DNA of 60,232 bases, from positions 1 to 60,232 of IMG/VR virus record IMGVR_UViG_3300013119_000728; one strand, 5' to 3'. The stretch comes from a virus. Lineage: Duplodnaviria; Caudoviricetes. The notes below the pieces were generated by a model. The model was not told the DNA's origin and made no database searches. It saw only the letters and a list, made by a program, of their open reading frames with translations. Position numbers and translations under genes: made by a program. Position 1 is the stretch's first letter. Each line of letters opens with the position of its first letter. Shown here in pieces: positions 7,389-29,243 of the stretch.

Positions 7389-8405
7389 GTGAAGAACTAT
7401 TACGATATCTTGGGTGTAAAGAAAGATGCTACTCAAGCACAAATCAAAAAGTCATATAGAAACCTGGCTAAGAGATATCACCCAGACACTTCAAAAGAGA
7501 CAAACGCAGAAGAGCTGTTCAAAGAAGTCGCTGAAGCATACACAGTCTTAGGCGATAAGGACAAAAGAAAATCATACGATAATCCTGCACCAAAAGGGTT
7601 CCCGCCTCCAGGTCCAGGCTTCGGTGATTTCTTTAGCCAGTTTACGGGCGGGTTTGAAGATTTATTCACAAGTCGCCGAGGCTACAAGCAGAACCCAAAG
7701 CCTACAAATCTTCGCTATCGACTTAATATCGATTTCTTCGCAGCAGCGATAGGAAAAGTAATCGATCTAAAGGTTGAGCGTATGGTGCCATGCAAGACAT
7801 GCGATGGGTCAGGAAGCACAGACAAGACTGTCAAGGCTGTATGCAAGAAGTGTCACGGGCAAGGTAACACTACTTTTTTGCAAGGCTTCTTCCAGATGAC
7901 ACGAACATGTGAGGAATGCAATGGTAAAGGCACAAATATAACGAATCCATGCAATTCATGTCTGGGCAAGGGCTTGAAAAACACACACGAGTCTATCAAG
8001 GTCAACATCCCAGCAGGAGTCGAAAATAACAACGTAATCAAAGTCAAGGGATACGGACATCAAAATGTAAAAGGCTCACCTCCTGGCGATCTTTTTCTAG
8101 AAGTAAGAGTAGGTGAGCATGGTAACTTCAAGCGGGTGGGAAACGATATTCATACCAGCGTTGTTATTTCTATACCTGAATCAATATTGGGTTGCCGAAG
8201 AGAGATTGAAACGGTCGCCGGCCCGGCCAAGCGATTAGTAATTCCTGACTGCACCAAGCCCGGAGACACGATTCGTCTCAAAGGTGAAGGTGTCAACGGC
8301 GGCGATCACGTTGTCACAATAAGGGTAACATTTCCCAGAACCCTTAGCAAAGAATTAGAAGACGCTTACGAGCAAGTTTATGAAGTTACTCACCCGAAAG
8401 GATAA
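7389..8405 (+). CDS. dnaJ: molecular chaperone DnaJ
   Basis: J domain with HPD, G/F-rich linker, four CxxCxGxG zinc-finger repeats, C-terminal domain. Confidence 0.95.
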   Translation: MKNYYDILGVKKDATQAQIKKSYRNLAKRYHPDTSKETNAEELFKEVAEAYTVLGDKDKRKSYDNPAPKGFPPPGPGFGDFFSQFTGGFEDLFTSRRGYKQNPKPTNLRYRLNIDFFAAAIGKVIDLKVERMVPCKTCDGSGSTDKTVKAVCKKCHGQGNTTFLQGFFQMTRTCEECNGKGTNITNPCNSCLGKGLKNTHESIKVNIPAGVENNNVIKVKGYGHQNVKGSPPGDLFLEVRVGEHGNFKRVGNDIHTSVVISIPESILGCRREIETVAGPAKRLVIPDCTKPGDTIRLKGEGVNGGDHVVTIRVTFPRTLSKELEDAYEQVYEVTHPKG

Positions 8406-8413
8406 TTATTAAT

Positions 8414-9223
8414 ATGTTAACATTCGTCGGTATTATTACATTCGTCGTATTTGTTCATGAATTTGGACATTACCTTGCTGCAAAGTCAGTAGGGATCCCA
8501 GTCAAGACATTCTCCCTCGGCTTCGGCCCCAAACTCCTCAGCTTCAATGCACGAGGAACTGAGTGGAGATTATCGCTTATACCTCTCGGCGGATACGTTC
8601 GCCTGGAAGGTGACGATGATTATGAGAACCTTGCAGAGGATCCTAATTCATTCTGGGGATGTAAACCTTGGAAGCGGATTCTAATTGCAGTGGCGGGTCC
8701 CGTGGTAAACCTAGCACTACCTCTGGCACTATTCTTTGGCTATTACTATGGTCAAAAGGTTGAAGTTGAGCATCAAACCCCGGCCGGAGTCATGGTAAAA
8801 GTTCACGAGGTAGATGCAAAGGTTGCAGCTCAAGCGTCCTATAGGATGACGAAAGACATGTATGCATCAATCGGTCGCGCAGTTAGTCACCTCAAGCAAA
8901 GCGGGGTCAAGAAAGAAGATCTCGGCGGGCCAGTAGCAATATATAATGAGACGCAAAGAGCTGTAAGGAAATCTGAGGAGACTAAAGACTGGGGATTCCT
9001 AATTCAGTGGATCGCTTTCTTCTCAATCAATCTGGGCGCCATGAATCTACTACCTATACCACTATTGGACGGCGGGCATATTATGCTGTCTACCTATGAA
9101 TGGATCACTCGCAAGCGCATATCAATGTCAGTCCGAGGCAAGCTTCATTTCGTAGGATTGTTATTTGTCTGTGCACTAATGGGCTTGGCAATCTATACCG
9201 ATGTAGCTAGACTAATTGGCTAA
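8414..9223 (+). CDS. rseP: site-2 intramembrane metalloprotease (M50, RseP-like), apparently without PDZ domains
   Basis: HEFGH, FSLGFGP, IPLGGYV, AGPVVN and NLLPIPLLDGGH motifs. Confidence 0.9.
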   Translation: MLTFVGIITFVVFVHEFGHYLAAKSVGIPVKTFSLGFGPKLLSFNARGTEWRLSLIPLGGYVRLEGDDDYENLAEDPNSFWGCKPWKRILIAVAGPVVNLALPLALFFGYYYGQKVEVEHQTPAGVMVKVHEVDAKVAAQASYRMTKDMYASIGRAVSHLKQSGVKKEDLGGPVAIYNETQRAVRKSEETKDWGFLIQWIAFFSINLGAMNLLPIPLLDGGHIMLSTYEWITRKRISMSVRGKLHFVGLLFVCALMGLAIYTDVARLIG

Positions 9224-10482
9224 CCACCGGTGCAGATATTGAGGAAGATCCTGCGCAAGGATTCAAATACCTCATTGGTTGTAGGATGATCACCAAGCGG
9301 GTGGAAGTTGTCTCGAACCCTAAAGATATCATCAAAGCTATCATAGAATCCATTGTCTGAATATACGTGCACGATGAATGGTGAGTTTGCCACAATGGCT
9401 CCTACTTCTGCTTCTCTGTGTTGAGGGATTGCTAGATCATGTGTCTGGCCTTCTTCATCTGTCATGAGAATGATAACCTTGTTTGACCCAGGCCGAAATG
9501 ATAATCTAAAGGTGTTCTCAACGACATAGCGAATAGCATCCCACGATGGCTCATCACCGCCTCCACGACTTCTTGCCATCTCTAGCGCAGTCTCAAGATG
9601 TTGCAAGAACTCATCTCGTGGCACAAAGTCTGTAATCAATCTCATCTTGCCATCGAGGTAGTTGGCACCCGGAATAGAATGAGAGCCAATCACAACGAGA
9701 CTGAACTTAAAGTTGCGTGTAAGATCGTCTTCGAGCAGAGGAGCAATACCGTAAATGGTTCGTTCAATCTCATCGTCAAAGGATCCGGACACATCAATGA
9801 TAAACGTAAGGTCAACACTGCCCGTGTCAAAGCCTTCGTCAATCTCACCATCACAATCATTGTCTTTGCCATCGCAAAGTTCCGGGGAAGGCAAAACCAT
9901 GCCAACGCAATCAGACTCCATTGATCCGTCAACACAATATCTAATACCCGGCTTGCATTCACCTACAAGAATCGTCTCCTGCGGACCGTCATAGCAGACT
10001 TCCATCGTAGTGTTGGGAAGCTGATCATCAACTACACCGTTACAATCATTGTCAATGCTGTCGCAAACCTCAGGGCTCGGACCAGCATGACCATCGCACC
10101 TCAGGTATCCGTCATAGCACATCCAGACACCGGGACTGCATATGCCCACACCGTATTCGATATCATCTTGCATACCGCAAAGCTGTGCTTGCTCTGGATA
10201 GTCTTCGTCAATTGCGCCATCACAATCATTGTCAAGGCCGTCACAAACTTCTGCTGTCGGGTCGGTGACACCTTCACATTCTGACCACCCAGCGTATGAG
10301 CATGTCTGCTTGCCCCACGAGCATATTCCGGTTCTGACTTTTTTATCTTCCCACGTCCGGCCAGCACCGTCACAATATAGAATACTGCCAGGTGTGCAGT
10401 CAAGCGCGATAAGCTTATCATCTTCACATGCCCCTGCAAGAAGCAATGCCACTGAGATGGAAACGACCGCAGCCCATTTCAT
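9220..10482 (-). CDS. lipoprotein with Cys/Asp-rich (MopE-related) repeats and C-terminal vWA domain
   Basis: Lipobox LAGAC; three ExCDxxDNDCxGxxD repeats; MIDAS DVSGS and MTDE. Confidence 0.8.
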   Translation of the reverse strand: MKWAAVVSISVALLLAGACEDDKLIALDCTPGSILYCDGAGRTWEDKKVRTGICSWGKQTCSYAGWSECEGVTDPTAEVCDGLDNDCDGAIDEDYPEQAQLCGMQDDIEYGVGICSPGVWMCYDGYLRCDGHAGPSPEVCDSIDNDCNGVVDDQLPNTTMEVCYDGPQETILVGECKPGIRYCVDGSMESDCVGMVLPSPELCDGKDNDCDGEIDEGFDTGSVDLTFIIDVSGSFDDEIERTIYGIAPLLEDDLTRNFKFSLVVIGSHSIPGANYLDGKMRLITDFVPRDEFLQHLETALEMARSRGGGDEPSWDAIRYVVENTFRLSFRPGSNKVIILMTDEEGQTHDLAIPQHREAEVGAIVANSPFIVHVYSDNGFYDSFDDIFRVRDNFHPLGDHPTTNEVFESLRRIFLNICTGG

Positions 10483-10943
10483 TTTAGCTCCTCCATGCCT
10501 TTAATACATGATTCCCGGGAGCTATAAAAAGGAATTGTAAGGACTGAGCTCTTAAGCCATCTAAACCTAATGCTTTTGATCGGGGTGTCTTTGCCCCCTA
10601 GATTACCCATCATAACAACTGGCAAAGCTTTTTGCTGGGAAGTTAAATTATATGAGAGGACTGCAATGTCACCGTGAACCTCAAGCACGCCAACAATAGA
10701 TCCTCGAACCTCAGCTTTGGGTATGCCGATGAAGACACGTGAGAAGCTACCGCGTTCCCGAGTAACATCGTTCTCAATGTACCCAACCCAGTCACAAAGA
10801 CCGTTCTTACCCGGGATGTAGTATGTGGTCTCAGCGGCAAAGATGATCTCAGGCTTTTGGTCAGCTGAGATGATGTAAGTGAATCCGGCTATTATTAATA
10901 GACCGAGTAGAATTGAAAGTCTTGAAAACTTTTCCCGTATCAT
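10479..10943 (-). CDS. membrane-anchored hypothetical protein
   Basis: N-terminal hydrophobic helix; coupled to both neighbours. Confidence 0.55.
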   Translation of the reverse strand: MIREKFSRLSILLGLLIIAGFTYIISADQKPEIIFAAETTYYIPGKNGLCDWVGYIENDVTRERGSFSRVFIGIPKAEVRGSIVGVLEVHGDIAVLSYNLTSQQKALPVVMMGNLGGKDTPIKSIRFRWLKSSVLTIPFYSSRESCIKGMEELK

Positions 10944-11224
10944 TCACCCTCGCTTGACTGACGCTCCACTGTAATAAAAGGCATCTTTATCAATTGTGCT
11001 TTGACTTCTGTGTTAGATGCATTGAAACCTGCAGCAGTAAAAAAGACTTGGTGCTTCATCTTTGGCTTCTGATTTGCTACTGCCCACTCACCTTTAACTA
11101 CATGCCACATCTGTGGAATCTTAGTAATTTTTGGCTGGGTATCAATATCATTTGCCATTGCCGAGAGGCTGGTAGAAAGAACAACTGACCCCATCAAAAG
11201 GACTCTTGTTAAATTCGCAAACAT
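10940..11224 (-). CDS. secreted hypothetical protein
   Basis: Signal peptide ending AMA; ATATTTAT on the minus strand at 11259-11266. Confidence 0.55.
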   Translation of the reverse strand: MFANLTRVLLMGSVVLSTSLSAMANDIDTQPKITKIPQMWHVVKGEWAVANQKPKMKHQVFFTAAGFNASNTEVKAQLIKMPFITVERQSSEGE

Positions 11225-11302
11225 GTTTTGTGCTCCTGTTGCTTCATACGCGCCATTTATAAATATGGACTTATAAGCTAAATTCGTCTATATTTATACT
11301 TG

Positions 11303-12151
11303 ATGGATATAAAAAACCTTAAAAAGTATATAATTTTATGCATAATCATGATTGTGACTTCTTCATGTGCGTCATCTTATTGCGCTGTTAAAGATCTTTC
11401 AAGGACCGTAGAAGAAAAACTACCCAGACAATCTTTTGCATTGATACAAAATTCTTTAGACCTCAAGGCATGCAAATCAATCGGAACTAATCTTCTCTCT
11501 GCATGTCAAACTGCAACGCTCGGATCCGCGTCCTCGGGTATGTTCGTAGGCAGAAGCAAGATCGACAGCACAGTAGGCTACGTTTTGACTGCAGGTCATA
11601 GCTGTGATGCGCAAGGCTTCAAGAAAAGATATGATAAGCCAGACGTCATCATCACAGTCGAGGCGCAAAGAATGAATATTGTTACGTATCATGGGCAATC
11701 ATACCCGGCAACAATCGTCAAGATGAATCATCAATATGATATGTGCTTGCTACAGGTTCACGGCATCGGAGATCATCCAGCTCCAGTTCGCGTATCAGAG
11801 ACCCCCCCGGTCCGCACACAAAAATCATACAACATCGCCGCTCCGCTCGGAATATTTAATACGAAGATGGTGTTCATGTTCAAGGGCTTGTTCTCAGGAT
11901 ACAACAAGCAAGGTTACGCACTATATACACTGCCTACAAAGCCTGGATCAAGCGGATCATCAATCTTAAATGCTGATGGTGAGATTATAGGCATGATCTT
12001 TGCAGGCTACCGCGGAATTGAAAGCATTGCTATCTCCTCACCGCATCATGCGCTTAAGGCGTTTATTGAGGATAATATAAAAATGGGTGAGCTAGCATTG
12101 CACACCCGCCAAAAAATGCTTGAAGCAAGAATCCTTGATCTTATAAGATAA
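11303..12151 (+). CDS. exported trypsin-like serine protease
   Basis: Triad motifs LTAGH, YDMCLL, PGSSGS; lipoprotein-like signal. Confidence 0.85.
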   Translation: MDIKNLKKYIILCIIMIVTSSCASSYCAVKDLSRTVEEKLPRQSFALIQNSLDLKACKSIGTNLLSACQTATLGSASSGMFVGRSKIDSTVGYVLTAGHSCDAQGFKKRYDKPDVIITVEAQRMNIVTYHGQSYPATIVKMNHQYDMCLLQVHGIGDHPAPVRVSETPPVRTQKSYNIAAPLGIFNTKMVFMFKGLFSGYNKQGYALYTLPTKPGSSGSSILNADGEIIGMIFAGYRGIESIAISSPHHALKAFIEDNIKMGELALHTRQKMLEARILDLIR

Positions 12152-13025: not shown

Positions 13026-15281
13026 ATGAAAATCAAAATAAATAATGAGCTCGAGCATATTACAGATCGGACTGGTCTTCTCCAAGACTTCATTGTCTTC
13101 ACGTGCAAAGATTTGCAATGCATGCCCTGTGACGTTGATATTGTTAATGGGCGAGATGAAGCTGGTTTAAAGACAACTGCACAATACGATCCGAACAGTC
13201 AGTATATCACAGTGAATGGCAAGAATCGTCACTTCGGTGATGTGCTTAGATCAATTGCACACGAGCTGGTTCATCATAAGCAAAATGTAAACGGCGAACT
13301 TGAAGCAGTTGTCCAAGATGTTGGCGGTGATATCGAGGATGAGGCAAATGCAAGAGCAGGTGCAATGCTTAAATCCTTTGCATACAATGTGGGCCCTGAG
13401 CGGATTTATGAGGGACGTTCACTTATAAGCGAAAAAGAAGAGTCTGCAAGCAAAAAGCTAGAATCTCAATTAAGCACCTTCCTTAAAAATATCAAAGCAG
13501 ATGTTTCATCTAGCGAAGACGAAGATGAGGAAGAAGAATCTGACTCATTGAGCGTGAAAAAATTTTCTAATAATAGGCTACCTCACGCAGCTGAAAAACA
13601 AAAATCGCTTGAAATTTTAGCAATGTCAAGGTATGAAAAGAAGCCATTCGAACCAATCTTAGGAATGCCTGCCCCAAGCCTGTCAGATGATACAAAAAAA
13701 ATATATAAGATTGAAGGTCACGGAGTACCGGTACATGCAATCTTTTCTGGTTTTGTTCTTAAAATAGGAAATGAAAAAGAAAAAGGAAATTTCATAGAAA
13801 TTCTTAGCAATGTTCAAAGCAAAGATAAAAAAACAATATCTCAATACATTACTGATTATATGCACTTAGGCGAAAAAACAAACAAAATCAAGCCGGGGGA
13901 GAATATAAGACAAGGAGAAATTATTGGATATACATCTCCCGATATAAAAGATGACAAAGATGATAATAATTTTTCAAATGATTATTTTGAAATAAGAATA
14001 GTACATATATCAAATATTGAAGTAAACGATCCAGAAGATCCAAATGATGATAAGCGAACACGCGCCAAAGATCAAATCAAAGATCTCGAGACATTTACAA
14101 TTAATGAGGCAGCTAACAATCTTCTTTCTCTTAAAAATCAATTTATTAAAAAAGTTTTCAAAGTAGTTCCTCCTGCTAAAAAAATGGAGATATCGTCACC
14201 GTACGGTTCAAGAACAACTACAATTGTTGGCGAAGACGGAAAGCCAAAAGAGATTAATAATACGCACCGAGGCATCGATATAAGAACAGATCCTCTAGGT
14301 GAATCTGGAAAAACGACAGTTTATTCTTCTGTATATGGAGTTGTTGCTGATATACGTGATGGTAAAAAATCTTATAATTTAAAAACAGATAAGTGCCCAC
14401 CCGGCACTGCAGCCGGAAATTATATAAAAATCAAACCAATCTATTCGGTTGGAGATCAAAATTTAACACTATTTTTTGCACACCTTCATGAAGGTTCAAT
14501 TTTTCCGGAAGTAGGTGACCTTGTTGAGCCCGGAAAAGCAATTGGTTTAATGGGTATGTCTGGTTGCACTACAGGTCCCCATCTTCACTTTGAAATAAGA
14601 AAAGGTGGAAAAAATTGGAATTTAGCACACAAACATAGTAATACTACAGGTCGCCTAAAATCATATGAAAGCTTAAAAGATGAAATTACTTCTGTTGCTG
14701 ATAAATTTAAAAGTGTAATAAGCGATGATGAAAAGTTTTTAAAGCTTTTTGAAGCAACAATACCAGAACAATTTAGAAAACCCGAGAAAAGCATGTCAGA
14801 ATCTAAAGTCCCAGGCACCAATATTATTAAGCAATATATTAATGAAGTTGTGTCAGCATATGGTGTAGGAAGAATTGATCCTACACAAGGTGGTGTGGGC
14901 CAAATGTTTAGGATGGGTGTTGATTATAAGAATGCAAGCACAAATATCCCACATGCTGCTGCGGGATATGTTGATCGAACTCGATCATTGCCATATGAAA
15001 TTTCAATACGCTCTGATCGAGATGCAAAGAAGCTTTATGAAACATTTTTCAAAGGTGGGTTTGTTGATGATAAAATAGTGATCCAGCCTGATGATGTTCA
15101 TTATACTACTGACGGCTTTAAAATGGATTGCCATGTATCAACCGGCTCAAATGCAGGAAATGATCGAGATGTTAACCTTATACAGCGACAACTCTATTCA
15201 TCAATGCTAGGAATTCCGAGCATGCCCAAGAATGCTTCGATCATCATTGATGTTATTCCAAAAGAAACAAAGATAAAATAA
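13026..15281 (+). CDS. multidomain protein: HExxH zincin-like domain plus two M23 peptidase domains
   Basis: AHELVHHKQ...EDEANA; YMHL..GEIIG (degenerate M23); HRGIDI...AHL...GPHLHFEIR. Confidence 0.75.
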   Translation: MKIKINNELEHITDRTGLLQDFIVFTCKDLQCMPCDVDIVNGRDEAGLKTTAQYDPNSQYITVNGKNRHFGDVLRSIAHELVHHKQNVNGELEAVVQDVGGDIEDEANARAGAMLKSFAYNVGPERIYEGRSLISEKEESASKKLESQLSTFLKNIKADVSSSEDEDEEEESDSLSVKKFSNNRLPHAAEKQKSLEILAMSRYEKKPFEPILGMPAPSLSDDTKKIYKIEGHGVPVHAIFSGFVLKIGNEKEKGNFIEILSNVQSKDKKTISQYITDYMHLGEKTNKIKPGENIRQGEIIGYTSPDIKDDKDDNNFSNDYFEIRIVHISNIEVNDPEDPNDDKRTRAKDQIKDLETFTINEAANNLLSLKNQFIKKVFKVVPPAKKMEISSPYGSRTTTIVGEDGKPKEINNTHRGIDIRTDPLGESGKTTVYSSVYGVVADIRDGKKSYNLKTDKCPPGTAAGNYIKIKPIYSVGDQNLTLFFAHLHEGSIFPEVGDLVEPGKAIGLMGMSGCTTGPHLHFEIRKGGKNWNLAHKHSNTTGRLKSYESLKDEITSVADKFKSVISDDEKFLKLFEATIPEQFRKPEKSMSESKVPGTNIIKQYINEVVSAYGVGRIDPTQGGVGQMFRMGVDYKNASTNIPHAAAGYVDRTRSLPYEISIRSDRDAKKLYETFFKGGFVDDKIVIQPDDVHYTTDGFKMDCHVSTGSNAGNDRDVNLIQRQLYSSMLGIPSMPKNASIIIDVIPKETKIK

Positions 15282-15340: not shown

Positions 15341-16123
15341 ATGAGTAATAATAATGATAATCGCTGGCTAAAGATGGCAGGAGTTTTAAACGAAGCTAAA
15401 GATCCATCTGAAAACCAAGAGGTCAAAACAGTCTTAGCTGAGCAAAAAGTTCGACGAATCATAAGAACACAAATTAAAAAGATTCTTACTGAGGCACGCA
15501 ATCCAACTCGCGAGGATGTTGTAACACTGCAAGCTACGCTAAATACATTAAAGCCAAACTCAGCTAAGCCTGACGGAATTTACGGCAAAGAGACTGCAAA
15601 TGCTATTGCACAATTTCAAAAAGATGCTAATCTTACCGTTGATGGTGTTGCAGGTCCTGAAACTTACGCAGCACTTGCATCTGCACTTGAGGCTGAAGAG
15701 TGGCCGTCAGAAGATGTTATGGGCGCTCTATTGACAGATGGACCGATTATTGGGCGCAAAGGTGTAGCAGATTTATCTCCTGCAGAGGTCGAAATGCCCA
15801 CAATTAACTTAGTTGCCGGCGATAAAGAAAGCGATGCTGCAGTAGCTGATGCTTTACGTATGATAATCGGAGATACCAAAGTTGATGTAGGTATCACAGA
15901 AGAAGATCGTTTGGCCGTCGCCCGCGCAATGGGTCAAGGTGATGATGCAGAAATAGTAAAATCCAGCCCCGAAGAAGTCGAAGTCAAAGTTGGCGGTAAG
16001 CAAGGTCTCGAACCAGTGATAATTAAAATTCATGACAGATCTGGCGCTAGCCTTGATATTGAAGAGCCAACACAATTGTCAGACAAGTTTATGTCTGGTG
16101 ATCTTATGATCAAAATGCCGTAA
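15341..16123 (+). CDS. peptidoglycan-binding domain protein
   Basis: DVVTLQATLN...DGIYGKETANAIAQFQ...LTVDGVAGPET; internal tag VRRIIRTQIKKILTE. Confidence 0.8.
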   Translation: MSNNNDNRWLKMAGVLNEAKDPSENQEVKTVLAEQKVRRIIRTQIKKILTEARNPTREDVVTLQATLNTLKPNSAKPDGIYGKETANAIAQFQKDANLTVDGVAGPETYAALASALEAEEWPSEDVMGALLTDGPIIGRKGVADLSPAEVEMPTINLVAGDKESDAAVADALRMIIGDTKVDVGITEEDRLAVARAMGQGDDAEIVKSSPEEVEVKVGGKQGLEPVIIKIHDRSGASLDIEEPTQLSDKFMSGDLMIKMP

Positions 16124-16131
16124 TCAATATT

Positions 16132-16425
16132 ATGAAAAACACTATTAGGAAAAATTCATTCATATACTTGATTGCAGCTTTGCTAACTATCTTATTTTTT
16201 AGCACGATCTCTGATGCAAAAGCCTCCGATGTCAAAAGAGAAGAAGATAAAATTTCATATCGAAAGAAAACATCAATCGATTTTTCAGATATCAACATCA
16301 CCGGTGAGTTAGTTAAACCCGAAGGTGCATATGTGGGAGTTAGAAAGAACATAAGGTTTAAGAACTTTATTAAAGTAAGATCAAATTTTAGGCACGAACT
16401 ATTTGATTCAGAAGACAATATATGA
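16132..16425 (+). CDS. cglF: adventurous gliding motility protein CglF/GltF homolog
   Basis: Signal peptide, then KKTSIDFSDINITGELVKPEGAYV...FIKVRSNFRHEL, recognised from memory as the CglF family signature. Confidence 0.75.
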   Translation: MKNTIRKNSFIYLIAALLTILFFSTISDAKASDVKREEDKISYRKKTSIDFSDINITGELVKPEGAYVGVRKNIRFKNFIKVRSNFRHELFDSEDNI

Positions 16426-16712
16426 TCGCAGCGTTAGCATCCATGATATCAATGGATACGTGGCCGCTTTATGATGACGAAAGAAAAAAAGCGCTTCTTA
16501 AGCTTCGGCATTGGTATAAAGCGACGCTTGACTGGGCAAAGATTTACGAGGATGACAATCATTCACTTCGAACTCGAAACCTCCTGGAAGACATAGAGAG
16601 AGTTGCCAGAGATATCGGCGAAGAAGACTCAGGTTGGCAATGGTATGATGACTGGGATGATGAGATGAATGCAATTTGGGCAACAATGAAACGAATGGGT
16701 GTCATAGAATGA
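16422..16712 (+). CDS. hypothetical protein
   Basis: Coupled ORF, W/D-rich. Confidence 0.55.
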   Translation: MIAALASMISMDTWPLYDDERKKALLKLRHWYKATLDWAKIYEDDNHSLRTRNLLEDIERVARDIGEEDSGWQWYDDWDDEMNAIWATMKRMGVIE

Positions 16713-17134
16713 AAATCACTCTGGGTAGCTTGAAAAAGATAATTAAAGAGCATGCTCAGCCCGCATTACTTTCACATCAAATTATCACTGTCGAAGGTCA
16801 TAAGATTGATTGCGAGATTGCAAATACTGACGCAGCAAGAATGCAAGGCCTCATGCATCGAACTGATCTTCCGCAAGACACGGGTATGCTCTTCGTATTC
16901 CCATGGGCAGACCAGCAATCATTTTGGATGCGGGACACACACATTCCTCTCGACGTAGCATTTGCTGACATCCATGGCAAGATACTGAATATTGAGACAG
17001 GAAACCCGCTGTCTGAGAAGAAGATGCTATCACAAGGCCCGGCCATGTATGTGCTTGAAGCACCCAAAGGGTGGTTTAGTCTTCACGATCTCGGAGAAGG
17101 ATCTGTAATAGACTTAAATAGCATTAACATTTAA
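16709..17134 (+). CDS. DUF192 domain protein with LKKIIKE leader
   Basis: GLMHR...GMLFVF...FWMRDTHIPLDVAF...YVLE; ATG 16709 gives MKITLGSLKKIIKE. Confidence 0.85.
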   Translation: MKITLGSLKKIIKEHAQPALLSHQIITVEGHKIDCEIANTDAARMQGLMHRTDLPQDTGMLFVFPWADQQSFWMRDTHIPLDVAFADIHGKILNIETGNPLSEKKMLSQGPAMYVLEAPKGWFSLHDLGEGSVIDLNSINI

Positions 17135-17183
17135 TAGTCAAAGCGATATATATTATAGACAATATTGTCAAGGGGGCTAAATC

Positions 17184-17591
17184 ATGTTAGAGCTACTACA
17201 ATCATTATGGGGCCTAGTATCCCTCGTCGCAATCGCAGCTTGGTCACTAGGCCTCGCATTACTAGCAGGAGCCTGGGATCTATTGATGGTTCTTCACGTT
17301 GATGCACCTCGTCTTGAAGGCCTGTTGGTCGGAATTGCACTTGCATGGCTGCTAGCACGCAGAGACAAACATCCGCTCCTCAGAGCAGCATCAGCACCCC
17401 TCAAGCTTGTATTGGATATCCTTGACCTTGCATGGGATCAGGTTGTCGAATCAGCATCAGACGTTTGCGACGCAGGTTGCGGAGCAGTTCGCTGGTCATG
17501 GAATAAGAAGGTTAGCTGGGTCAAGGCTGGCTGGTCATGGTGCATGAGTCGCCTTGTAGCGCTCAAAGAAAAACTTAGCCACAAGGAATAA
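17184..17591 (+). CDS. membrane protein
   Basis: Two hydrophobic W/L-rich helices. Confidence 0.6.
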   Translation: MLELLQSLWGLVSLVAIAAWSLGLALLAGAWDLLMVLHVDAPRLEGLLVGIALAWLLARRDKHPLLRAASAPLKLVLDILDLAWDQVVESASDVCDAGCGAVRWSWNKKVSWVKAGWSWCMSRLVALKEKLSHKE

Positions 17592-17602
17592 GGAAAAATC
17601 AA

Positions 17603-18529
17603 ATGAAAATGTCAGGCAAGATCTTAAGAAAGATTATTAACGAAGAGATCCAGCTCCTTAGTGAGGCAAAATATAATCCTACACATGACGATGTCAAAAC
17701 TTTACAGTCTGCAATTAATTTTATTGTCGATGTTGATAATGACGAAGACATAGATCTAGATAATCTAGAAAAAGATTTAAAAGACGTGCTCAATGTTGAT
17801 GGAATCTTTGGAAGAAATACAGATAGAGAGCTTAGAAAAGCGCAAAGTCAATTAGGAGTAAAGCCCGACGGTTTGGCCGGCCCAAAGACAATGATAAAAA
17901 TGTCAGAAGCTATTAATGAGTTTATTCTTGAAATTGAGAATGAAGCTGCTGGAGATTTCGCAGAAGAGGAATTCGGGCCGATCGCAGATGATTTGAAGCG
18001 CTTAATAGATTTACGAGCAGTAATGGGAATGTCAAGAGGCAAGCCCAAAAAGAAAAAATCTAAACCTGAACCAGAAGAAAAAGAAATGTCTGTCGGGGGT
18101 AAAGATAGCGAAGCAGAATCTAGCGTGAATGCACGAGGCTATGATATCAGCAAAGGCCCAATTAAAAGAAATAGTAAACAAAGTCACGTAGACTATCTCA
18201 ATAAAGAAGGAATCAAAAAAGCAGTTCTTGATGGAATCAATTATTTGTTTTTAAACAATAAAATAAAAAACAAAGACATGGCAATGCATGTTTTGTCAAC
18301 ACTTCCGAAAAAGTCAAAAAAAGAAGGAAGAATATCTGAGCTCCATGCGACACTTCTAGATGTTGCTGAAGCCCGCGGAATCAAGCTTATAAATCACTAT
18401 AATCGACTTCTTAAAGGCTATAAAGGAATTCTCCAGCGAACTAATAAAGACAATAGAGATAACATGAAAGCGAAGCTCGAGAAAAGAATTGGCGCCGGAG
18501 CAAAAGAATTTAAAAAAGCCTTAAGCTAG
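17603..18529 (+). CDS. peptidoglycan-binding domain protein with LRKIINEE leader
   Basis: VDGIFGRNT...LGVKPDGLAGPKT; N-terminus MKMSGKILRKIINEEIQLLSE. Confidence 0.75.
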   Translation: MKMSGKILRKIINEEIQLLSEAKYNPTHDDVKTLQSAINFIVDVDNDEDIDLDNLEKDLKDVLNVDGIFGRNTDRELRKAQSQLGVKPDGLAGPKTMIKMSEAINEFILEIENEAAGDFAEEEFGPIADDLKRLIDLRAVMGMSRGKPKKKKSKPEPEEKEMSVGGKDSEAESSVNARGYDISKGPIKRNSKQSHVDYLNKEGIKKAVLDGINYLFLNNKIKNKDMAMHVLSTLPKKSKKEGRISELHATLLDVAEARGIKLINHYNRLLKGYKGILQRTNKDNRDNMKAKLEKRIGAGAKEFKKALS

Positions 18530-20219: not shown

Positions 20220-20714
20220 ATGATAAATTTCAAAAGCTTAATTAGAGAAGTTAATGATTGGCCCAAGCCCGGCGTAGGATTTAAAGATATCACATCAATA
20301 CTGGGGACAGATAAGTTTCCTGAGCTAATTGATGCAATGGCCGAGCAGCTCGTTGATATTGACACCATCGATGCTTTCGTAGGTATTGAATCACGAGGAT
20401 ATATCTTTGCGTCAGCATTGGCATACAAGCTTGGCAAGGGAGTAATATTAGCAAGAAAGCCCGGAAAACTTCCGCCGCCCGTAAAGTCAGTTGAGTATTC
20501 ATTGGAGTATGGCACAGATAGCTTAGAAATGCAAGCCGGCTCCGGTCGCGTCGTAATTGTTGATGATGTAGTTGCTACTGGCGGAACCCTGACTGCTGCA
20601 GAACAACTTGCAAAGGATTGCGGGTATGACGTTGTTGATTCACTTTGCTTTATTGACTTGAGGTTTATTCATGATAGAAGCCTTGACACGAAATGTGTAG
20701 TAACGTATGACTGA
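20220..20714 (+). CDS. apt: adenine phosphoribosyltransferase
   Basis: DWPKPGVGFKDIT, GIESRGY, ARKPGKLP, LEYGTD, VVIVDDVVATGGT. Confidence 0.95.
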   Translation: MINFKSLIREVNDWPKPGVGFKDITSILGTDKFPELIDAMAEQLVDIDTIDAFVGIESRGYIFASALAYKLGKGVILARKPGKLPPPVKSVEYSLEYGTDSLEMQAGSGRVVIVDDVVATGGTLTAAEQLAKDCGYDVVDSLCFIDLRFIHDRSLDTKCVVTYD

Positions 20715-21279
20715 TATCATAATGATCAGCGCTCTAAGAGATGAAACACAAGATCTTTTTGATGATGTTCTTCCAGTGATTTATAGCGGAGTAGGTAAGG
20801 TTAATGCTGCTCTCACCACTGCAAAGGCCATTGAGCAATACAAGCCTAAACTCATCATCAACTTTGGCACCGCCGGAAGTCACAGTATCAAACCACATAC
20901 ATTAGTTGATTGTAATAAATTTATTCAAAGAGACATGCATATTGATGCACTTGGATTTGGCTACGGCATTACACCTTTCGAAGAAGACATACCCAGAGTC
21001 ATAGAGTTTTCCTCGAGTGGTAATATGAATATGGTGTGTGGAACCGGAGATAACTTCGTGGCTGCGTCAGATAAACTAGAATGCGACGTAGTAGACATGG
21101 AAGCATATGCCATAGCAAAATCATGCCATCTATCTAGCGTCGATTTCGTATCATACAAATATATCACAGATGGCGCAGATGAAAATGCAGCTAATCAATG
21201 GAAAGAGAATTGCGCAAAGGGCGCCATAAAGTTTTACGATATTTTGAAAAGTGTCATACAAGACTATAATAAATCTTAA
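20707..21279 (+). CDS. mtnN: 5'-methylthioadenosine/SAH nucleosidase (PNP/UDP family)
   Basis: SGVGKVNAA, INFGTAG, TGDNF, VDMEAYAIA, KYITD. Confidence 0.8.
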   Translation: MTDIIMISALRDETQDLFDDVLPVIYSGVGKVNAALTTAKAIEQYKPKLIINFGTAGSHSIKPHTLVDCNKFIQRDMHIDALGFGYGITPFEEDIPRVIEFSSSGNMNMVCGTGDNFVAASDKLECDVVDMEAYAIAKSCHLSSVDFVSYKYITDGADENAANQWKENCAKGAIKFYDILKSVIQDYNKS

Positions 21280-21316
21280 TAATTAAAAGAAAACTTCAGC
21301 CAGAAAGGTTTTTCAA

Positions 21317-21727
21317 TTGACAACCAGACTAACAATCTTATTTTTAATAGCATCTTGCACGCCTGCAATCCCAGAGGTGGAAGCAAAAACTTCAGCAAAT
21401 ATTGACACTATATCCGGTATAACTTTATCTGAAAGAGGAAAGGCAATTTTTTATGGCGACGGAACAGTAAATTGTTCAACATGTCATACTGCAGGCATGC
21501 ATAATGCACCGCATTTAATTGGGTTCTCTCATAGAAAGACAATTGCAGGAACACTGCCAAACACGCCTGACAATCTGAGAAAGTGGCTAACAGATCCACA
21601 ATCAGTCAAGCCGTCAACAGAGATGGCAACACACATACTTCCAATTCACCCAGATCCTATAAAGAAATTTATAAAGATTCCTGATGCAGAAATAACAGCC
21701 CTAATTGCATACCTCCAAACTTTATAA
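21317..21727 (+). CDS. c-type cytochrome lipoprotein
   Basis: Lipobox LIASC; CSTCH heme motif; LPNTPDNLRKWLTDPQSVKPSTEM with distal Met; ALIAYLQTL. Confidence 0.85.
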   Translation: MTTRLTILFLIASCTPAIPEVEAKTSANIDTISGITLSERGKAIFYGDGTVNCSTCHTAGMHNAPHLIGFSHRKTIAGTLPNTPDNLRKWLTDPQSVKPSTEMATHILPIHPDPIKKFIKIPDAEITALIAYLQTL

Positions 21728-21735
21728 TTACCTGC

Positions 21736-22146
21736 ATGACTAATAAAGAAATCAAGGCTGAGCTAGAAAAGCAACTCGACACTGGCAAGATCCGCGTCAT
21801 CATCGACACTGGGCATCGAGGTGTCAAAGTCCCAGTATCATTCATGAACGTGGGCCCAACGGTCTTCATCCTTGCGTGGGATTATCCGGGAATTGATATC
21901 GAGATAAACACACGTTCAGTCAAAGCAACACTCAGATTCAAAGGCACACCATTCAGGTGCACATTCCCGATCAAGTCAATCAAGAGCATCATCTCAATGA
22001 ACTCGGCGCAAACTCCGCCCGAGCCTACAAAGAAGAAGCTGAAGGATCCCAGAGACCAGAGCGCAGGTCCAGGTCTCAAGATCATTGAAAAGGAATTCCC
22101 GATCACCGGCCTGGGTCACAAAGGCACATTAACCCAGCTGAAGTAA
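21736..22146 (+). CDS. SspB-like ClpXP adaptor
   Basis: GVKVP...VKATLRFKGTPFRCTFPIKSI, resembling SspB. Confidence 0.65.
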   Translation: MTNKEIKAELEKQLDTGKIRVIIDTGHRGVKVPVSFMNVGPTVFILAWDYPGIDIEINTRSVKATLRFKGTPFRCTFPIKSIKSIISMNSAQTPPEPTKKKLKDPRDQSAGPGLKIIEKEFPITGLGHKGTLTQLK

Positions 22147-23534: not shown

Positions 23535-24347
23535 GTGCTTATGTTTTATGTTTATTTTTATAGAGACCCAATAACAAAAAATATCGTTTATATCGGAAAA
23601 GGAAAGAACAAAAGAGATATATCACATTGGGAAAAAAGAAACGACGACCACGGTAGCAATATATGGTTCAAAAGATATCTGAGAAAACTTGATAGATGCG
23701 GTCAAAAACCCATCATAGAAAGATATCAAGAAAATCTAACTAATGTTGATGCATATATGATTGAACACGATCTGATCAAAGAGCATGGAAGAAAAGGCGT
23801 AGATGACGAAGGAAGCCTTTATAATAGATCTATAGGGTTTGAGCATTTCAATGTAAGCAAGCTTGATAGAGATTCGATTTCTAAGTATCTGGATGAATTC
23901 ACACACTTTAATTTCATTCCGGTCTATGATAATATAAAGAAAGAAATTTGTAAGGATTATGTAAAAAATCATATGGGCCTCGTTGCATTGTCAAGAAAGT
24001 TTTCAATAGGTTCCGGAAAGATAAAAAATGTTTTATTAGAGATGGGCATAGAAATAAAAACTCGCGGCGCCCAGCCTGGAGTCTTGAACGGCATGGCAGG
24101 AAAGAAAAGAGGACCAAACAATTATTTTAAAGGAAGAAAACACACAGATGAAACAAAAAAGAAAATATCTGAATCGATTAAACAAAAAGCAAGGGGCATA
24201 AGAGTAAGAGTGAATGATCAAGAATTTTATTCTCTTAAAGCTGCAGCCACATATGTAGAAGTATCTCCCTCGACAATAGCCAGATATTCAAAGTCAGGAA
24301 AGAAATTGATAAAAAATGGTAATAAATTTTCAATCTCTGTTGTATAG
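23535..24347 (+). mobile_element. GIY-YIG homing endonuclease with NUMOD3-like motif
   Basis: YVYFY...YIGKG...R; FKGRKHTDETKKKISES; C-terminal HTH; AT-rich. Confidence 0.8.
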
Positions 24348-25042: not shown

Positions 25043-25118
25043 GGGGCGGTATCCCAACGGCAGAGGACCTCGACTTAAAATCGACTCAGTGTGGGTTCGA
25101 ATCCCACTCGCCCTACCA
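25043..25118 (+). tRNA. tRNA-Leu(TAA), short variable arm
   Basis: Cloverleaf, anticodon loop CTTAAAA, GTTCGAATC, encoded CCA. Confidence 0.85.
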
Positions 25119-25153
25119 GAAACTTAAACGCCGAGAGGCAAAAGGAGAATAAG

Positions 25154-25363
25154 ATGAACGTAGATCAACACTTAAAGGTTGCCCAGTGGCATATGGAACA
25201 AGCACGACTTCATGCAACATCAAAGCATAGTTGCGGTTGCCCAGCAAATGAGCACGATCAAAAGGCTATCGATGCAATTGAAGCAATGCTATCAGCACTC
25301 GAGCAGACAGGCAATGAGATTACTGAAGATCAAGAGGCAGCATGCTCAATCACAGGTGAGTAA
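25154..25363 (+). CDS. small hypothetical protein
   Basis: AAGGAG RBS then MNVDQHLK. Confidence 0.55.
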   Translation: MNVDQHLKVAQWHMEQARLHATSKHSCGCPANEHDQKAIDAIEAMLSALEQTGNEITEDQEAACSITGE

Positions 25364-25463
25364 TGTCAAACCTTATGTTTGAAAATCTTGAAACAACAAT
25401 CGATATCATCCTTGCTATCGGAGGTCTATTAGTGACTATCCTAAGCATAGTGGGAGGCCCATA

Positions 25464-25958
25464 ATGAACATAATACCTGCATCAATCTTCAATCCAAACT
25501 CAGAAAATACCAATATGGGATTTGTATTCGAACGGCGAGTCATGAGAGATCTTGAGAAAGCAGGCCTTCACCCTGTGCTGGTGTCTGACTGGCTCGAGCG
25601 TCAATTCCCAGATATCAATCAGGTCGGCTTGAATGCCACTGCAAAGATGATGGGCGATATTATGGTTGTATCTCCAAAGACAGGAGCCCCGGTATTTATT
25701 GAATGTTGTTCAATGAACCCGCCGCCAGGGAAAACTAGGTTTACCACGTCCAAGCCTGAAAACTTTAATGGCCTATGTCGATGGTATGCTCTGGGATATC
25801 CGAGAGCTGAAAATGTTACATACATAAGATCATCAACATGGAATAAGTATGTTCGCAAGACAGACCTGAACGGTGCATATTACGTGTTCCCAACGAAGTA
25901 TATCAACAGCCTCAGCTCAGCAATCCGGAGTTCTCTATCATTCGCCGCGAGCGTCTAA
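25464..25958 (+). CDS. possible PD-(D/E)xK nuclease-like protein
   Basis: GFVFERRV...GDIMVV...VFIEC pattern. Confidence 0.4.
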   Translation: MNIIPASIFNPNSENTNMGFVFERRVMRDLEKAGLHPVLVSDWLERQFPDINQVGLNATAKMMGDIMVVSPKTGAPVFIECCSMNPPPGKTRFTTSKPENFNGLCRWYALGYPRAENVTYIRSSTWNKYVRKTDLNGAYYVFPTKYINSLSSAIRSSLSFAASV

Positions 25959-26380
25959 CCATGGATAGCAAAGAAGTAATCGTGGCACACCTCAATCGTC
26001 TCCGGGATGAAATACCAACCTCAGGCACAATCATGGACGCTGAGGTGACGCGGTGGTTGGACAGAGTCGGTGAGGTGCTAGAAGAATATTACATGTGCAT
26101 TGCGGAGGAGGAAGATGTTTGAAGAACCAAAGCCGCACAAGACAATAAACGAGATCAGGCCCTGGGAAACTATCAGTCTTGTTGTCGGTAACTGCTTGAT
26201 AATTGCATACATTGTTTTCAAGACTACAGGTAATTAAAATGTGTAAATCCAAATCAGCTAAGTTATAATGTCTACGTAATAAAGATCATAACCTCCCTGA
26301 GGAAATGGCTTGGATGTTATTTGATATATGAATACAAGATGAATCGCGCTCGTTATGGGTATTTTCACGCTGCTAATTGT

Positions 26381-26456
26381 GGGTGTGTAGCTTAGCGGCC
26401 AAAGCATCTCACTTTTAATGAGTTGATCGTGAGTTCGAGTCTCACCACACCTACCA
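26381..26456 (+). tRNA. tRNA-Lys(TTT)
   Basis: Cloverleaf, loop CTTTTAA, CCA. Confidence 0.9.
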
Positions 26457-26504
26457 TAGAGTGCGATTCTAGCATAGGATTGATCCACCTCAACGGATCA
26501 CTAT

Positions 26505-26579
26505 GGCCCTGTCGTCTATCGGTTAGGACATCAGGTTTTCATCCTGGTAAGCGGGGTTCGATTCCCCGCAGGGTCACCA
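26505..26579 (+). tRNA. tRNA-Glu(TTC)
   Basis: Cloverleaf, loop TTTTCAT, CCA. Confidence 0.92.
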
Positions 26580-26742
26580 AAGAAAAAGGAGAAATAAGAT
26601 GTCAACAGCAGGCTTATTAAAAGAAATCAATCGTCTTGCAAGTATAAACGAAAAGCTTGCGGCTGAAAACAAGAAGCTGCTAGCATTAAACAAATCACTT
26701 TCAGCACAATTATATAGTAAACATCAAACAGGAGTAGAATAA

Positions 26743-27114
26743 ATGAGTTACAAAACAATGGCAGCAGTAATGAACGCGTATGGTAGTGATCATGCCGGAG
26801 CACAAATGTCAGTCCTAAAGCACAAAAAATCAGGAGAGGCATTCTGGTTTCCTAAGATTAGCAATCCAAGCCCTGGGTGGAAAAATACATATAGAGGAAA
26901 TGTAATTCAAGAGACCGGTCTAACGACAGACAATAAGCAGAGATTGCTTGCTGTTCTAAATCAAAAGCAAAACAGCGATATCCCAGTCAGTCGGAGACAT
27001 TTCCGCAAGGCATTCGGAAAAATCAATGGATCTTATTCGTATTTGGGAGACTTTGAGCTAGATGTAGAAAGCTCAACCAAGTCAGGAACTCTTATTTGGC
27101 GAAAGGTATCATAG
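26743..27114 (+). CDS. hypothetical protein
   Basis: 123-aa ORF with AGGAG RBS between tRNAs. Confidence 0.6.
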   Translation: MSYKTMAAVMNAYGSDHAGAQMSVLKHKKSGEAFWFPKISNPSPGWKNTYRGNVIQETGLTTDNKQRLLAVLNQKQNSDIPVSRRHFRKAFGKINGSYSYLGDFELDVESSTKSGTLIWRKVS

Positions 27115-27121
27115 AATAAAT

Positions 27122-27198
27122 TGGCTCATAGCTCAGCTGGTTAGAGCTTTCGCCTGATAAGCGAGAGGTGGGAGGTTCGAATCCTCCTGGGCCAACCA
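27122..27198 (+). tRNA. tRNA-Ile(GAT)
   Basis: Cloverleaf, loop CTGATAA, CCA. Confidence 0.92.
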
Positions 27199-27269
27199 TG
27201 ATACATTTACCGGGAACGGTATAGAATAGAGAAGTTCAAATCATCTACAACACAAAGAAGGAGAATTAG

Positions 27270-27701
27270 ATGAGCACAGTAGAGACAGGAAACACAGTCA
27301 ACGTCCACTATCGAGGCACTCTTGACGACGGATCAGAGTTTGATAGTTCACACGACCGCGGAGAGACACTAACATTCGAGGTCGGCGCCGGACAAATGAT
27401 CCCGGGTTTCGATGCAGCATTGCCAGGAATGGAAGTTGGCGAGACCAAGAGCATCACAATTAGCGCTGAGCAAGCATATGGTGAGTCAAATCCTGAGGCA
27501 GTTGCTGATGTTCCAAAGGCTAGCTTCCCTGAGAACTATGAGTTCGAAGTTGATGCAATGGTTCAAGGACAAAATGACTCAGGTGAATCAGTCGTTGGAA
27601 TTATCAACGAAGTAAATGATGAGTTTGTAACAATTAATTTCAATCATCCTCTCGCTGGCAAGTCACTGAACTTTGAGATTGAGCTAGTAAGCATCGATTA
27701 G
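27270..27701 (+). CDS. slyD: FKBP-type peptidyl-prolyl isomerase (SlyD/SlpA-like)
   Basis: VHYRGTLDDGSEFDSS, GQMIPGFD, AYG, NFNHPLAGKSLNF. Confidence 0.9.
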   Translation: MSTVETGNTVNVHYRGTLDDGSEFDSSHDRGETLTFEVGAGQMIPGFDAALPGMEVGETKSITISAEQAYGESNPEAVADVPKASFPENYEFEVDAMVQGQNDSGESVVGIINEVNDEFVTINFNHPLAGKSLNFEIELVSID

Positions 27702-27987
27702 GATTAAAGATGACAGTTGACAAAGAAAGACTAAAGCGCTCAAGATACGTGATCATATCAGATGAAGAGCGTCTGAGGTTGAATGATATCGAGGGCGTAG
27801 AATCTCCGATGGATTATCCACCCGAGTTCATGTCATCACCCATCTTTTATAACAACTTGCCCGTTGGGTCCGTAAGTAGAAGCAATAGAAACGTGATTAC
27901 AAATATTGCTTTCGCACTTAAACACCTTAAGAACGTTGAGTATTATTACGGTGACGTTGATCCAGATAGAAAAAGCAAAGGACCTTA

Positions 27988-28605
27988 ATGTTCAAGACAG
28001 TTCTAATTGATCCGCCCTGGAAGAAGACAACAGGTGGAGTAGGACACAAGACACTGGCACCATCAACACATTACGACGTTCAGAATCGTCATCAAGTTCT
28101 GGCAACGCTTGAAGGTTGGTTTGACAAACATGAAGTTGCACCCGAGGCACACCTTTACCTGTGGACGATCAACTCATTCACAGCGGGAAAAGATCAGGGT
28201 ATCATTCCGGGAATGGAGCTTTGCAAGAAGCTTGGCTTCACCCCGGTAACCTTGATTCCGTGGGTCAAGAACGGCGCAGGAAGTCCCACGCCATATGGCA
28301 TGAGGCATACTGAGATGTGCATCTTCGGTGTCAGGTATCGAAAAGGCATGGGTAAAAACACACGCTACAGTGGCACTGAGGATCCTGAGAATGTTGTTAA
28401 CGGGAAAGGATTATGCTCATCTCGAGATTACATCATTGAACCACGTCGCGAGCATTCTCGTAAGCCTGATGCATTCTATGAGTATGTTGAGAAGAGAAGT
28501 GCTGGTCCCTATCTTGAGCTCTATTCACGAACCTCCCGGCCCGGGTGGGTTGCAGAAGGAAATCAAACGGGCACGTGGGGTCCTAAAAAAGATTTAAACA
28601 AATAA
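27988..28605 (+). CDS. MT-A70 family adenine methyltransferase
   Basis: IDPPW, HLYLWT, REHSRKPD, LELYSR...GW..GNQ. Confidence 0.88.
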   Translation: MFKTVLIDPPWKKTTGGVGHKTLAPSTHYDVQNRHQVLATLEGWFDKHEVAPEAHLYLWTINSFTAGKDQGIIPGMELCKKLGFTPVTLIPWVKNGAGSPTPYGMRHTEMCIFGVRYRKGMGKNTRYSGTEDPENVVNGKGLCSSRDYIIEPRREHSRKPDAFYEYVEKRSAGPYLELYSRTSRPGWVAEGNQTGTWGPKKDLNK

Positions 28606-28650
28606 TGGCAGCATAATATAATTTATGCATATTGAGTAATATTTATGTTG

Positions 28651-28801
28651 GACCCCTGGCATTCATATTACGCCTCCAAGGGAGTTTTGGTGGGACCGCC
28701 ATCCTATCATGCTTCCTGATCCTGGCGGGGATCGAAACACTATTAGTTAAATGCTGGGTTACTACTTAACCAGCTTAAAAACCAAGTAGAACCCAGGGGT
28801 C
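28651..28801 (+). ncRNA. candidate structured ncRNA of unknown class
   Basis: 9-bp closing helix GACCCCTGG/CCAGGGGTC enclosing four hairpins; ATATTTAT just upstream. Confidence 0.55.
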
Positions 28802-28806
28802 ATTTT

Positions 28807-28882
28807 GCCGGTTTAGCTCAGTTGGAAGAGCATCTGATTTGTAACCAGAAGGCCGGGGGCTCGATTCCTCCAACCGGCACCA
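28807..28882 (+). tRNA. tRNA-Thr(TGT)
   Basis: Cloverleaf, loop TTTGTAA, CCA. Confidence 0.88.
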
Positions 28883-28903
28883 AAAATTGATTGTGTGAAT
28901 ATC

Positions 28904-29233
28904 ATGTATGAATATAGTGCAAAAGTTACAAAGGTCTATGATGGAGACACGATCACGGTTGACTTCGATTTAGGTTTTGGTATCGTTCTGAGAAAACAAA
29001 AGATTCGATTGCTTGGGATCAACACACCCGAAGTCAGGGGAAAATCCCGTGAGCAGGGTCTGATATCAAGGGACCGGCTTCGCGAGAGGATCATGGGAGA
29101 AAATGTCATCATCAAGACGACCAAAGACCGCAAGGGAAAGTATGGTCGTTGGCTCGGCGAGGTGTTTATAAAAGATGAGAATATAAATCAGTGGCTTTTA
29201 AACGAAGGCTTGGCTGAGAAGTATAATAAGTAG
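28904..29233 (+). CDS. thermonuclease (SNase) family protein
   Basis: VYDGDTI, IRLLGINTPE, GKYGRWLG, NEGLA. Confidence 0.92.
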   Translation: MYEYSAKVTKVYDGDTITVDFDLGFGIVLRKQKIRLLGINTPEVRGKSREQGLISRDRLRERIMGENVIIKTTKDRKGKYGRWLGEVFIKDENINQWLLNEGLAEKYNK

Positions 29234-29243
29234 AAAGGAATAG

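Follow-up and report, generated by a model that had tools for sequence, protein, structure and literature searches.

The gene at positions 16132–16425 of a viral DNA fragment is very probably gltF (= cglF) of host origin in the genome of a large marine phage. The fragment, referred to here as the window, is the whole stretch of 60,232 nucleotides that was analyzed, and it makes up an entire, linear IMG/VR virus record. The best overall explanation, to which we give a probability of about 0.6, is that the product is a host-derived GltF adaptor that engages the Glt complex of the host. The finding is larger than first stated because related phages keep the gene: gltF holds as a conserved feature of a marine phage family and is not a one-off. 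The gene and the parts of its product are as follows.

16132–16425, plus strand: gltF/cglF homolog, 97 amino acids including the signal peptide, ATG start, stop codon at 16423–16425
16132–16224, plus strand: predicted Sec (Type I) signal peptide, residues 1–31, from inspection of the translation, with a putative cleavage site at its end
16261–16326, plus strand: conserved core, residues 44–65, from a 60-sequence alignment (A2)
16378–16422, plus strand: C-terminal segment, residues 83–97, with a predicted helix (87–96) and invariant R83 and S93, from the AlphaFold2 model and alignment A2

The sequence-only reading had described a signal peptide and quoted two peptide stretches; all are present in the 97-amino-acid translation of this open reading frame (ORF). 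By inspection, the N-terminus has basic residues followed by a hydrophobic run and an A-x-A type site at about residue 31, with no cysteine or lipobox, and it aligns with the A-x-A-Q-D end of the signal peptides of host GltF. Inspection and alignment thus describe a small secreted protein with a Type I signal, no lipobox and no transmembrane segment in its mature part. The AlphaFold2 model (mean pLDDT 63) places a helix at 3–30, a coil, and a second helix at 87–96. The core carries 9 of the 12 family-invariant residues (T47, D50, F51, G58, E59, L60, K62, P63 and G65). The gene is a member of a tight same-strand gene run: 8 nucleotides separate it from the stop codon of the upstream gene, and it overlaps the following ORF by 4 nucleotides (ATGA). 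An antisense ORF (16110–16418, minus strand) was set aside as a shadow frame. The match to a protein family described below, relatives with 61–80% identity and purifying selection confirm that the ORF is more than a chance frame.

In an NCBIfam search the product matched a single family, NF033764 'adventurous gliding motility protein CglF' (an equivalog; E = 1.4e-18, 66.7 bits), with residues 13–96 aligned to profile positions 5–87 of 88. The score is below the curated 90-bit equivalog cut-off of the family. Orthologs from marine Myxococcota with gltE/gltG context, including those in genomes G004 and G005, are below it as well, at 70.1–76.2 bits (71.1 for the homolog at locus L004). Because these syntenic cellular orthologs also fall short, the low score is a property of a lineage distant from the seed sequences and does not set the phage copy apart. 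The window protein keeps all 12 invariant and 11 near-invariant columns of alignment A2. Searches of it against Pfam (nothing at E ≤ 10) and PHROGs gave no match. The identity proposed from the sequence, CglF/GltF, was therefore borne out by a significant profile match and by the synteny of its cellular orthologs with gltE/gltG; the absence of a CglF hit had been named in advance as the result that would speak against it.

GltF and CglF are two names for one protein (PMC4488436), which has a Type I signal sequence (PMC4488436, PMC3325183). In Myxococcus xanthus, gltF (MXAN_4868) encodes 89 amino acids with a signal peptide and without a Pfam domain; gliding and GltD clusters both require GltF, which localizes to focal adhesions (PMC3169522). 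Its distribution is given there as Myxococcota (and Bdellovibrionota) only. A modeling paper of 2025 presents GltF as small, periplasmic and largely disordered, with a C-terminal helix in a crevice of GltC and a strand paired to GltG at its TonB-like C-terminal domain, and hence as a bridge between GltC on the outer-membrane side and GltG in the inner membrane (PMC11761067). The coil and C-terminal helix of our AlphaFold2 model resemble this description. According to that paper, the periplasmic Glt complex had seen no biochemistry, and the role of GltF came from genetics and the structural model (PMC11761067).

The nearest cellular copies are in one marine order of Myxococcota. A word-index protein search returned 34 candidates, 32 of which matched at E ≤ 0.001 with 61–80% identity to the window protein; a protein identical to it was found on 14 contigs, the longest of 91,680 bases. 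One cluster of relatives was labeled by NCBI only as 'hypothetical protein' of a Myxococcota metagenome-assembled genome (MAG). Single-sequence scans of genome and viral collections for loci found nothing, but alignment-based scans did. Among species genomes the latter found eight loci: five in marine Myxococcota MAGs (L002–L006; genomes G004, G005, G015, G025 and G040) with 66–80% identity, two with 42–52%, and one with a match of 25 residues only. At L004, an 87-amino-acid homolog lies between a gene for a GltE-like TPR lipoprotein and a GltG-like gene, with CglE next; on the upstream side are genes for GltC, a long TPR protein in the GltD position and an outer-membrane barrel protein. All 27 cellular loci examined, 7 earlier loci and 20 regions picked from the best matches in a scan of 301 genomes, have a GltG-type gene with the C-terminal domain immediately after gltF.

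In that Myxococcota sample, 267 of the 301 genomes had a match at E ≤ 0.001 (including G199, flagged as unpublished), and none of 14 control genomes had a match that reached the cut-off. The five best genomes (G015, G005, G025, G004 and G040), at 67–82% identity, are set apart, since the next best reached at most 58%. All five are among the six genomes of the order that contains G005; no match was found in the sixth, G048 (2.0 Mb). Genomes in this order are of 2–3.9 Mb. To copies in Myxococcota genomes of 9–10 Mb, the window protein is 52–54% identical over residues 27–97. Because the cellular distribution is so restricted, these comparisons support a transfer from the marine Myxococcota order to the phage. 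They also lend indirect support to the proposal of the sequence-only reading that the host is a myxobacterium or similar bacterium. The link to this putative host is through homology only: when all six genomes of the order were searched with the full window by BLAST, the matches were at the level of genes and tRNAs, with no spacer-like near-identical short match.

Two kinds of more distant sequence were seen in cellular genomes. In an ORF of about 352 amino acids at L009 (a Myxococcia MAG; match at 10001–10075), the GltF core motif lies close to the N-terminus and precedes a long unrelated stretch; this ORF, possibly a fusion or an unrelated form, was excluded from the trees. Both host-order MAGs that were searched carry a second, distant gene of the CglF family (L018 on G004:C107 and L019 on G005:C15; 67.9–68.1 bits). 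The L018 copy is 34% identical to the window protein, the L019 copy gave no tblastn hit, and adjoining L018 there is only a weak GltE-like match. These copies may belong to a paralogous Glt-like system.

We considered whether the gene is a phage gene at all. The window and its relatives could represent cellular islands or plasmids, host DNA could have been mis-binned, or gltF could be a neutral passenger. We regard this as very improbable. In its favor, no capsid, portal, terminase or tail gene was recognized among the 30 window ORFs scanned, so that the viral label rests on the IMG/VR record, tRNAs and non-structural phage families. This is the main weakness of the label 'phage'. In addition, searches of IMG/VR for window-like phages gave one weak hit with the M23 peptidase protein encoded upstream of gltF and none with its N-terminal domain, and the window has cellular-looking genes (an M50 protease, a cytochrome c and a nucleoside phosphorylase). 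Against it, IMG/VR classifies the DNA as viral, and CheckV gives 17% completeness, which implies a genome of several hundred kb. Fourteen tRNA genes lie in three groups (25043–30447, 50212–50605 and 58299–58375), interleaved with HNH/homing endonuclease ORFs (for example, 23535–24347 and 29378–30088), and almost all long ORFs are on one strand. PHROG matches (E ≤ 0.001) were found for 19 of the 30 ORFs scanned, on both sides of gltF, and include a DNA ligase (5.6e-71), an ATPase, a methyltransferase and several HNH/homing endonucleases. The GC content of the window is 43.4% and that of gltF 31.6%, compared with 55–61% for the loci of host MAGs; the window is thus 12–17 points under host loci. 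A viral contig that also carries a member of the family (L011) has genes for a DNA polymerase, a head maturation protease and an endolysin. Finally, the dN/dS of about 0.05 reported below excludes a neutral passenger.

Several other genes of the window were noted. In a comparison confined to the six genomes of the putative host order, the tRNA-Asp and tRNA-Arg were 93–97% identical to tRNAs found there, a similarity that is not counted as a host link. A DnaJ-like chaperone (7389–8405, plus strand) matched phrog_14336 (E = 1.7e-89), with 31–36% identity to its best GenBank phage matches, and a sigma factor (33269–34042, plus strand) matched phrog_351 (E = 2.2e-58). The product of 8414–9223 (plus strand, 269 amino acids) is an M50/RseP-type site-2 protease (TIGR00054, 196.9 bits, above the cut-off of 147.55; PF02163, E = 2e-57), that is, an intramembrane protease of the envelope-stress pathway borne by a phage. 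A run of cellular-type genes (20220–22146, plus strand) encodes a phosphoribosyltransferase, a nucleoside phosphorylase (PNP_UDP_1) and a cytochrome c. A contig of 10 kb in MAG G004 carries an ORF with 67% identity to the phosphorylase and is otherwise without similarity to the window; only 3 of the 301 Myxococcota genomes matched the phosphorylase at E ≤ 1e-25.

A host–phage chimera at this point, which the sequence-only reading had named as another way for its proposal to fail, is not what was found. When eight cellular loci were compared with the window by tblastx, gltF was the only gene in common; no other glt gene of the host loci was on the window. The window copy is solitary among phage genes and away from the gltE–gltG cluster position, a loss of context that is expected for a captured gene. 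Marine or seawater metagenomes of two studies contain DNA nearly identical to the 13.0–18.6 kb region: at least half of the sampled words occur in five runs, two of which are possibly the source of the window. In runs that could not be its source, one contig spans 14057–18600 with one differing letter and another spans 15931–17945, and each bridges both ends of gltF. Because independent marine assemblies bridge both ends, the window is not a chimera here, and diverged relatives keep the gene in its place. The gene thus stands in a viral genome with viral flanks on both sides, on a 60-kb fragment in which no virion gene was recognized.

A scan of metagenome contigs gave 37 loci with gltF, 5 with host-type and 32 with phage-like flanks. 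The host-type loci have GltD/E/G/CglE neighbors and a flank GC of 52–62%, compared with 43–52% for the phage-like flanks. With gltF masked (tblastx, E ≤ 1e-8), the 32 phage-like loci fall into 24 window-like and 8 L010-like ones, none with a Glt neighbor. L010 is one of three further IMG/VR contigs with family members, at 70% identity and 76.6 bits against NF033764; the others, L011 and L012, are at 31–33% identity and 45.3 and 43.6 bits. No GltF match was found in 50,697 GenBank phage records at E ≤ 0.01.

All six long window-like loci that were inspected are colinear with the window, with neighbor identities of 36–84%, in a set of relatives recovered entirely through gltF itself. The common order is the HExxH–M23 protein, gltF, a 96-amino-acid ORF and a DUF192 protein. 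The genes around gltF in the window are as follows.

9220–12151, both strands: upstream envelope-directed block of the VWA/MopE gene, two small ORFs (minus strand) and a trypsin-like protease (Pfam; conserved)
9220–10482, minus strand: VWA and MopE-repeat protein, 420 amino acids, with MopE-type cysteine-rich repeats (Pfam)
11300–12151, plus strand: trypsin-like protease (Pfam), colinear in L075 and L082
13017–15281, plus strand: 754-amino-acid protein with an N-terminal HExxH domain and an M23 peptidase (PF01551, E = 1.8e-23), colinear in 6 of 6 long loci
15341–16123, plus strand: peptidoglycan-binding protein directly upstream of gltF (PF01471, E = 2e-18)
16422–16712, plus strand: 96-amino-acid ORF whose start overlaps the gltF stop, no family match, 36–44% identity at the same place in 6 of 6 long loci
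16676–17134, plus strand: DUF192 protein (PF02643, E = 5.4e-29), 68–70% identical in 6 of 6 long loci
17184–17591, plus strand: 135-amino-acid hydrophobic ORF, probably a membrane protein, no family, about 63% identical in 5 of 6 long loci (L071 stops short)

In L075 the colinear stretch extends upstream to include the trypsin-like protease and the VWA protein. The peptidoglycan-binding gene was matched in L082 and L085, with no match in L070, L075, L077 and L071. The N-terminal HExxH domain (13026–13427, plus strand) is the best-conserved piece of the block, with 75–84% identity in six related loci and a mean column identity of 90%, and it has no assigned family. The repeat region of the VWA/MopE protein is 39–53% identical to parts of ORFs of 465–1202 amino acids in all five host-order genomes searched, and the best of these matches are to ORFs of 1065–1202 amino acids. 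A role of the VWA/MopE protein as an adhesin of the CglB/CglD type is not supported: it matched no NCBIfam family at E ≤ 0.01, and only its repeat region matches the MAG ORFs.

These neighborhoods bear on another reading, namely that phage GltF helps at the envelope or in lysis, for instance during periplasmic or outer-membrane steps of release or entry, as a re-used GltF fold that works with the neighboring peptidoglycan enzymes and has nothing to do with gliding. In the window group, gltF lies 1–2 genes from the M23 peptidase and peptidoglycan-binding proteins, an arrangement that is conserved, and in L011 the family member is one ORF past an Amidase_2/PG_binding_1 endolysin. In the L010 group, however, 0 of 8 neighboring ORFs had a Pfam hit, and the adjacency therefore holds in two of three groups. 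The protein has no extra domain. Its 66–80% identity to host GltF and its retention of every family-invariant residue point to the same partners as in the host. We consider this reading improbable.

L011 is surrounded by genes for a DNA polymerase, a dUTPase, a head maturation protease, an amidase endolysin and GroEL. In both L011 (10001–11837) and L012 (9965–11855), the distant GltF-like gene is directly followed by GroEL (phrog_5725, E = 6.8e-144), and in this group the Amidase_2 endolysin lies one ORF upstream of it.

The phage copies are close relatives of those of the marine order. In a 66-row tree, a clade with 99% SH-aLRT support joined 30 metagenome proteins, 4 MAG copies, the window protein and L010. 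When context was used to label a 52-row tree, 9 host and 34 phage copies were joined (99% SH-aLRT) against 9 copies from other Myxococcota; the 24 window-like copies formed one group (97) and 8 of 9 L010-like copies another (96). The window's own copy lies on a long branch at the base of the clade. The 66-row tree was made by a quick method, and the alignment has only about 92 columns. A single clade of all 34 window-like and L010-like phage copies was not rejected (p-AU 0.589). The free tree placed L011 and L012 beside a low-GC genome (L045), apart from the window clade. Independent capture by these phages was considered and is not established, as forcing them into the window clade was not rejected either (p-AU 0.598). 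With neither constraint rejected, the trees do not fix the number of captures.

The median dN/dS was 0.044 in the window-like group (234 pairs), 0.05 in the L010 group (29 pairs) and 0.021 among host copies (19 pairs), as estimated by NG86 on the last 62 codons after dropping identical pairs and those with dS outside 0.05–5. Phage gltF copies are under strong purifying selection, and the gene is kept under such selection in at least two unrelated phage backbones. It is an old, constrained gene and not a recent accident. The window copy shows an oddity. Its dS is saturated against every other sequence, with a dN of 0.13–0.24, and its dN to host copies (0.13–0.19) is no larger than that to syntenic phage copies (0.15–0.22). 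Simple vertical descent among these phages does not account for this pattern.

How might the phage use this protein? We infer that GltF made in the infected cell would probably be exported by the Sec pathway, cleaved at about residue 31 and docked on GltG and GltC of the host as host GltF is. Docking may involve the conserved core (residues 44–65) for GltG and the C-terminal segment (83–97) for GltC; counting from the C-terminus, the core would correspond to the published GltG-pairing strand and the segment to the GltC-crevice helix. A prediction limited to two chains, phage GltF (34–97) and the C-terminal 140 amino acids of GltG from L003, and run without controls, gave no answer (scores 0.03 and 0.01 against a mark of 0.32) and is counted neither for nor against docking. 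Docking would give the phage a handle on the Agl-Glt trans-envelope machine. Its purpose could be substitution or supplementation, which we put at somewhat below an even chance: the phage would supply a short, probably labile adaptor while host expression fails, and the machine would run until lysis. We know of no benefit of gliding to a phage.

The same docking could also jam the machine. An excess of the adaptor would saturate GltG and GltC separately and uncouple the bridge, so that gliding stops or a Glt-dependent entry route is shut to superinfecting phages. Several phages block a host motility organelle that serves as their receptor, and TonB-box peptides inhibit TonB-dependent uptake. 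GltF is a two-ended bridge in the published model: it contacts the TonB-like domain of GltG through a strand and GltC through a helix (PMC11761067). Both contact segments are conserved in the phage copies, and gltF lies within an envelope-directed block (M23 peptidase, peptidoglycan-binding proteins, trypsin-like protease and VWA protein). We nevertheless regard jamming as rather unlikely. No receptor is known for these phages, phage blockers of motility are so far known as novel proteins and not as captured host subunits, and the contact segments show no phage-specific change, since their variable positions vary in cellular lineages too.

Sustaining and jamming fit the data equally well, since either would keep both presumed contact segments conserved. 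We would prefer, narrowly, that the phage copy sustains the machine, because captured host genes generally keep their host function. More tentatively, the phages may use GltF as a TonB-box-like handle on GltG and so seize the PMF-driven Agl-Glt machine, either to close an entry route against rivals or to couple it to envelope-directed enzymes of their own.

The window protein is like M. xanthus GltF in size class (97 versus 89 amino acids), in its signal peptide, in the lack of a transmembrane segment and of a Pfam domain, and in matching nearly the whole CglF profile. It differs in being on a phage contig without adjoining gltE/gltG and in scoring below the equivalog cut-off, and it is known here from its sequence. 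With GltF of the marine order it shares a clade (99% SH-aLRT), length and motifs, but the host copies lie in a gltC/D/E/F/G–cglE cluster with 55–61% GC, whereas the window copy has 31.6% GC and saturated synonymous sites. The photosystem genes of cyanophages are host-derived, encode a short-lived or limiting component, and are under purifying selection in several phage lineages. Phage gltF likewise is a phage-encoded host component under purifying selection in several lineages; however, GltF is a structural adaptor of a motility/envelope motor and not a metabolic enzyme or photosystem subunit. Phage proteins that block motility organelles for superinfection exclusion are also small and directed against a surface-motility machine. 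The known examples are novel proteins that act on the ATPases of type IV pili in the cytoplasm, whereas the window GltF is a captured periplasmic subunit. A literature search on CglF or gliding motility with phage or viral terms found no report of a viral gltF, and the main text of a preprint on CRISPR-linked myxophages (10.64898/2026.09.14.751636) does not contain 'glt' or 'cglf'.

If phage GltF is indeed a handle on the motor, these phages, in two to three lineages, would be the first known case of viruses with a structural component of a bacterial gliding motor. GltF is among the least understood parts of the Agl-Glt machine. Its phage variants, kept under purifying selection, would serve as a map of the important residues, and the phage protein could be a complementing or dominant-negative reagent for the bridge between GltG and GltC. 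The gene may also be a host marker for uncultured large marine phages and for the small-genome marine order of Myxococcota, for which we know of no isolates or phages. Phage-captured host functions would extend from metabolism to an adaptor of an envelope-spanning motor, and phages with gltF probably tamper with the envelope motor of their host.
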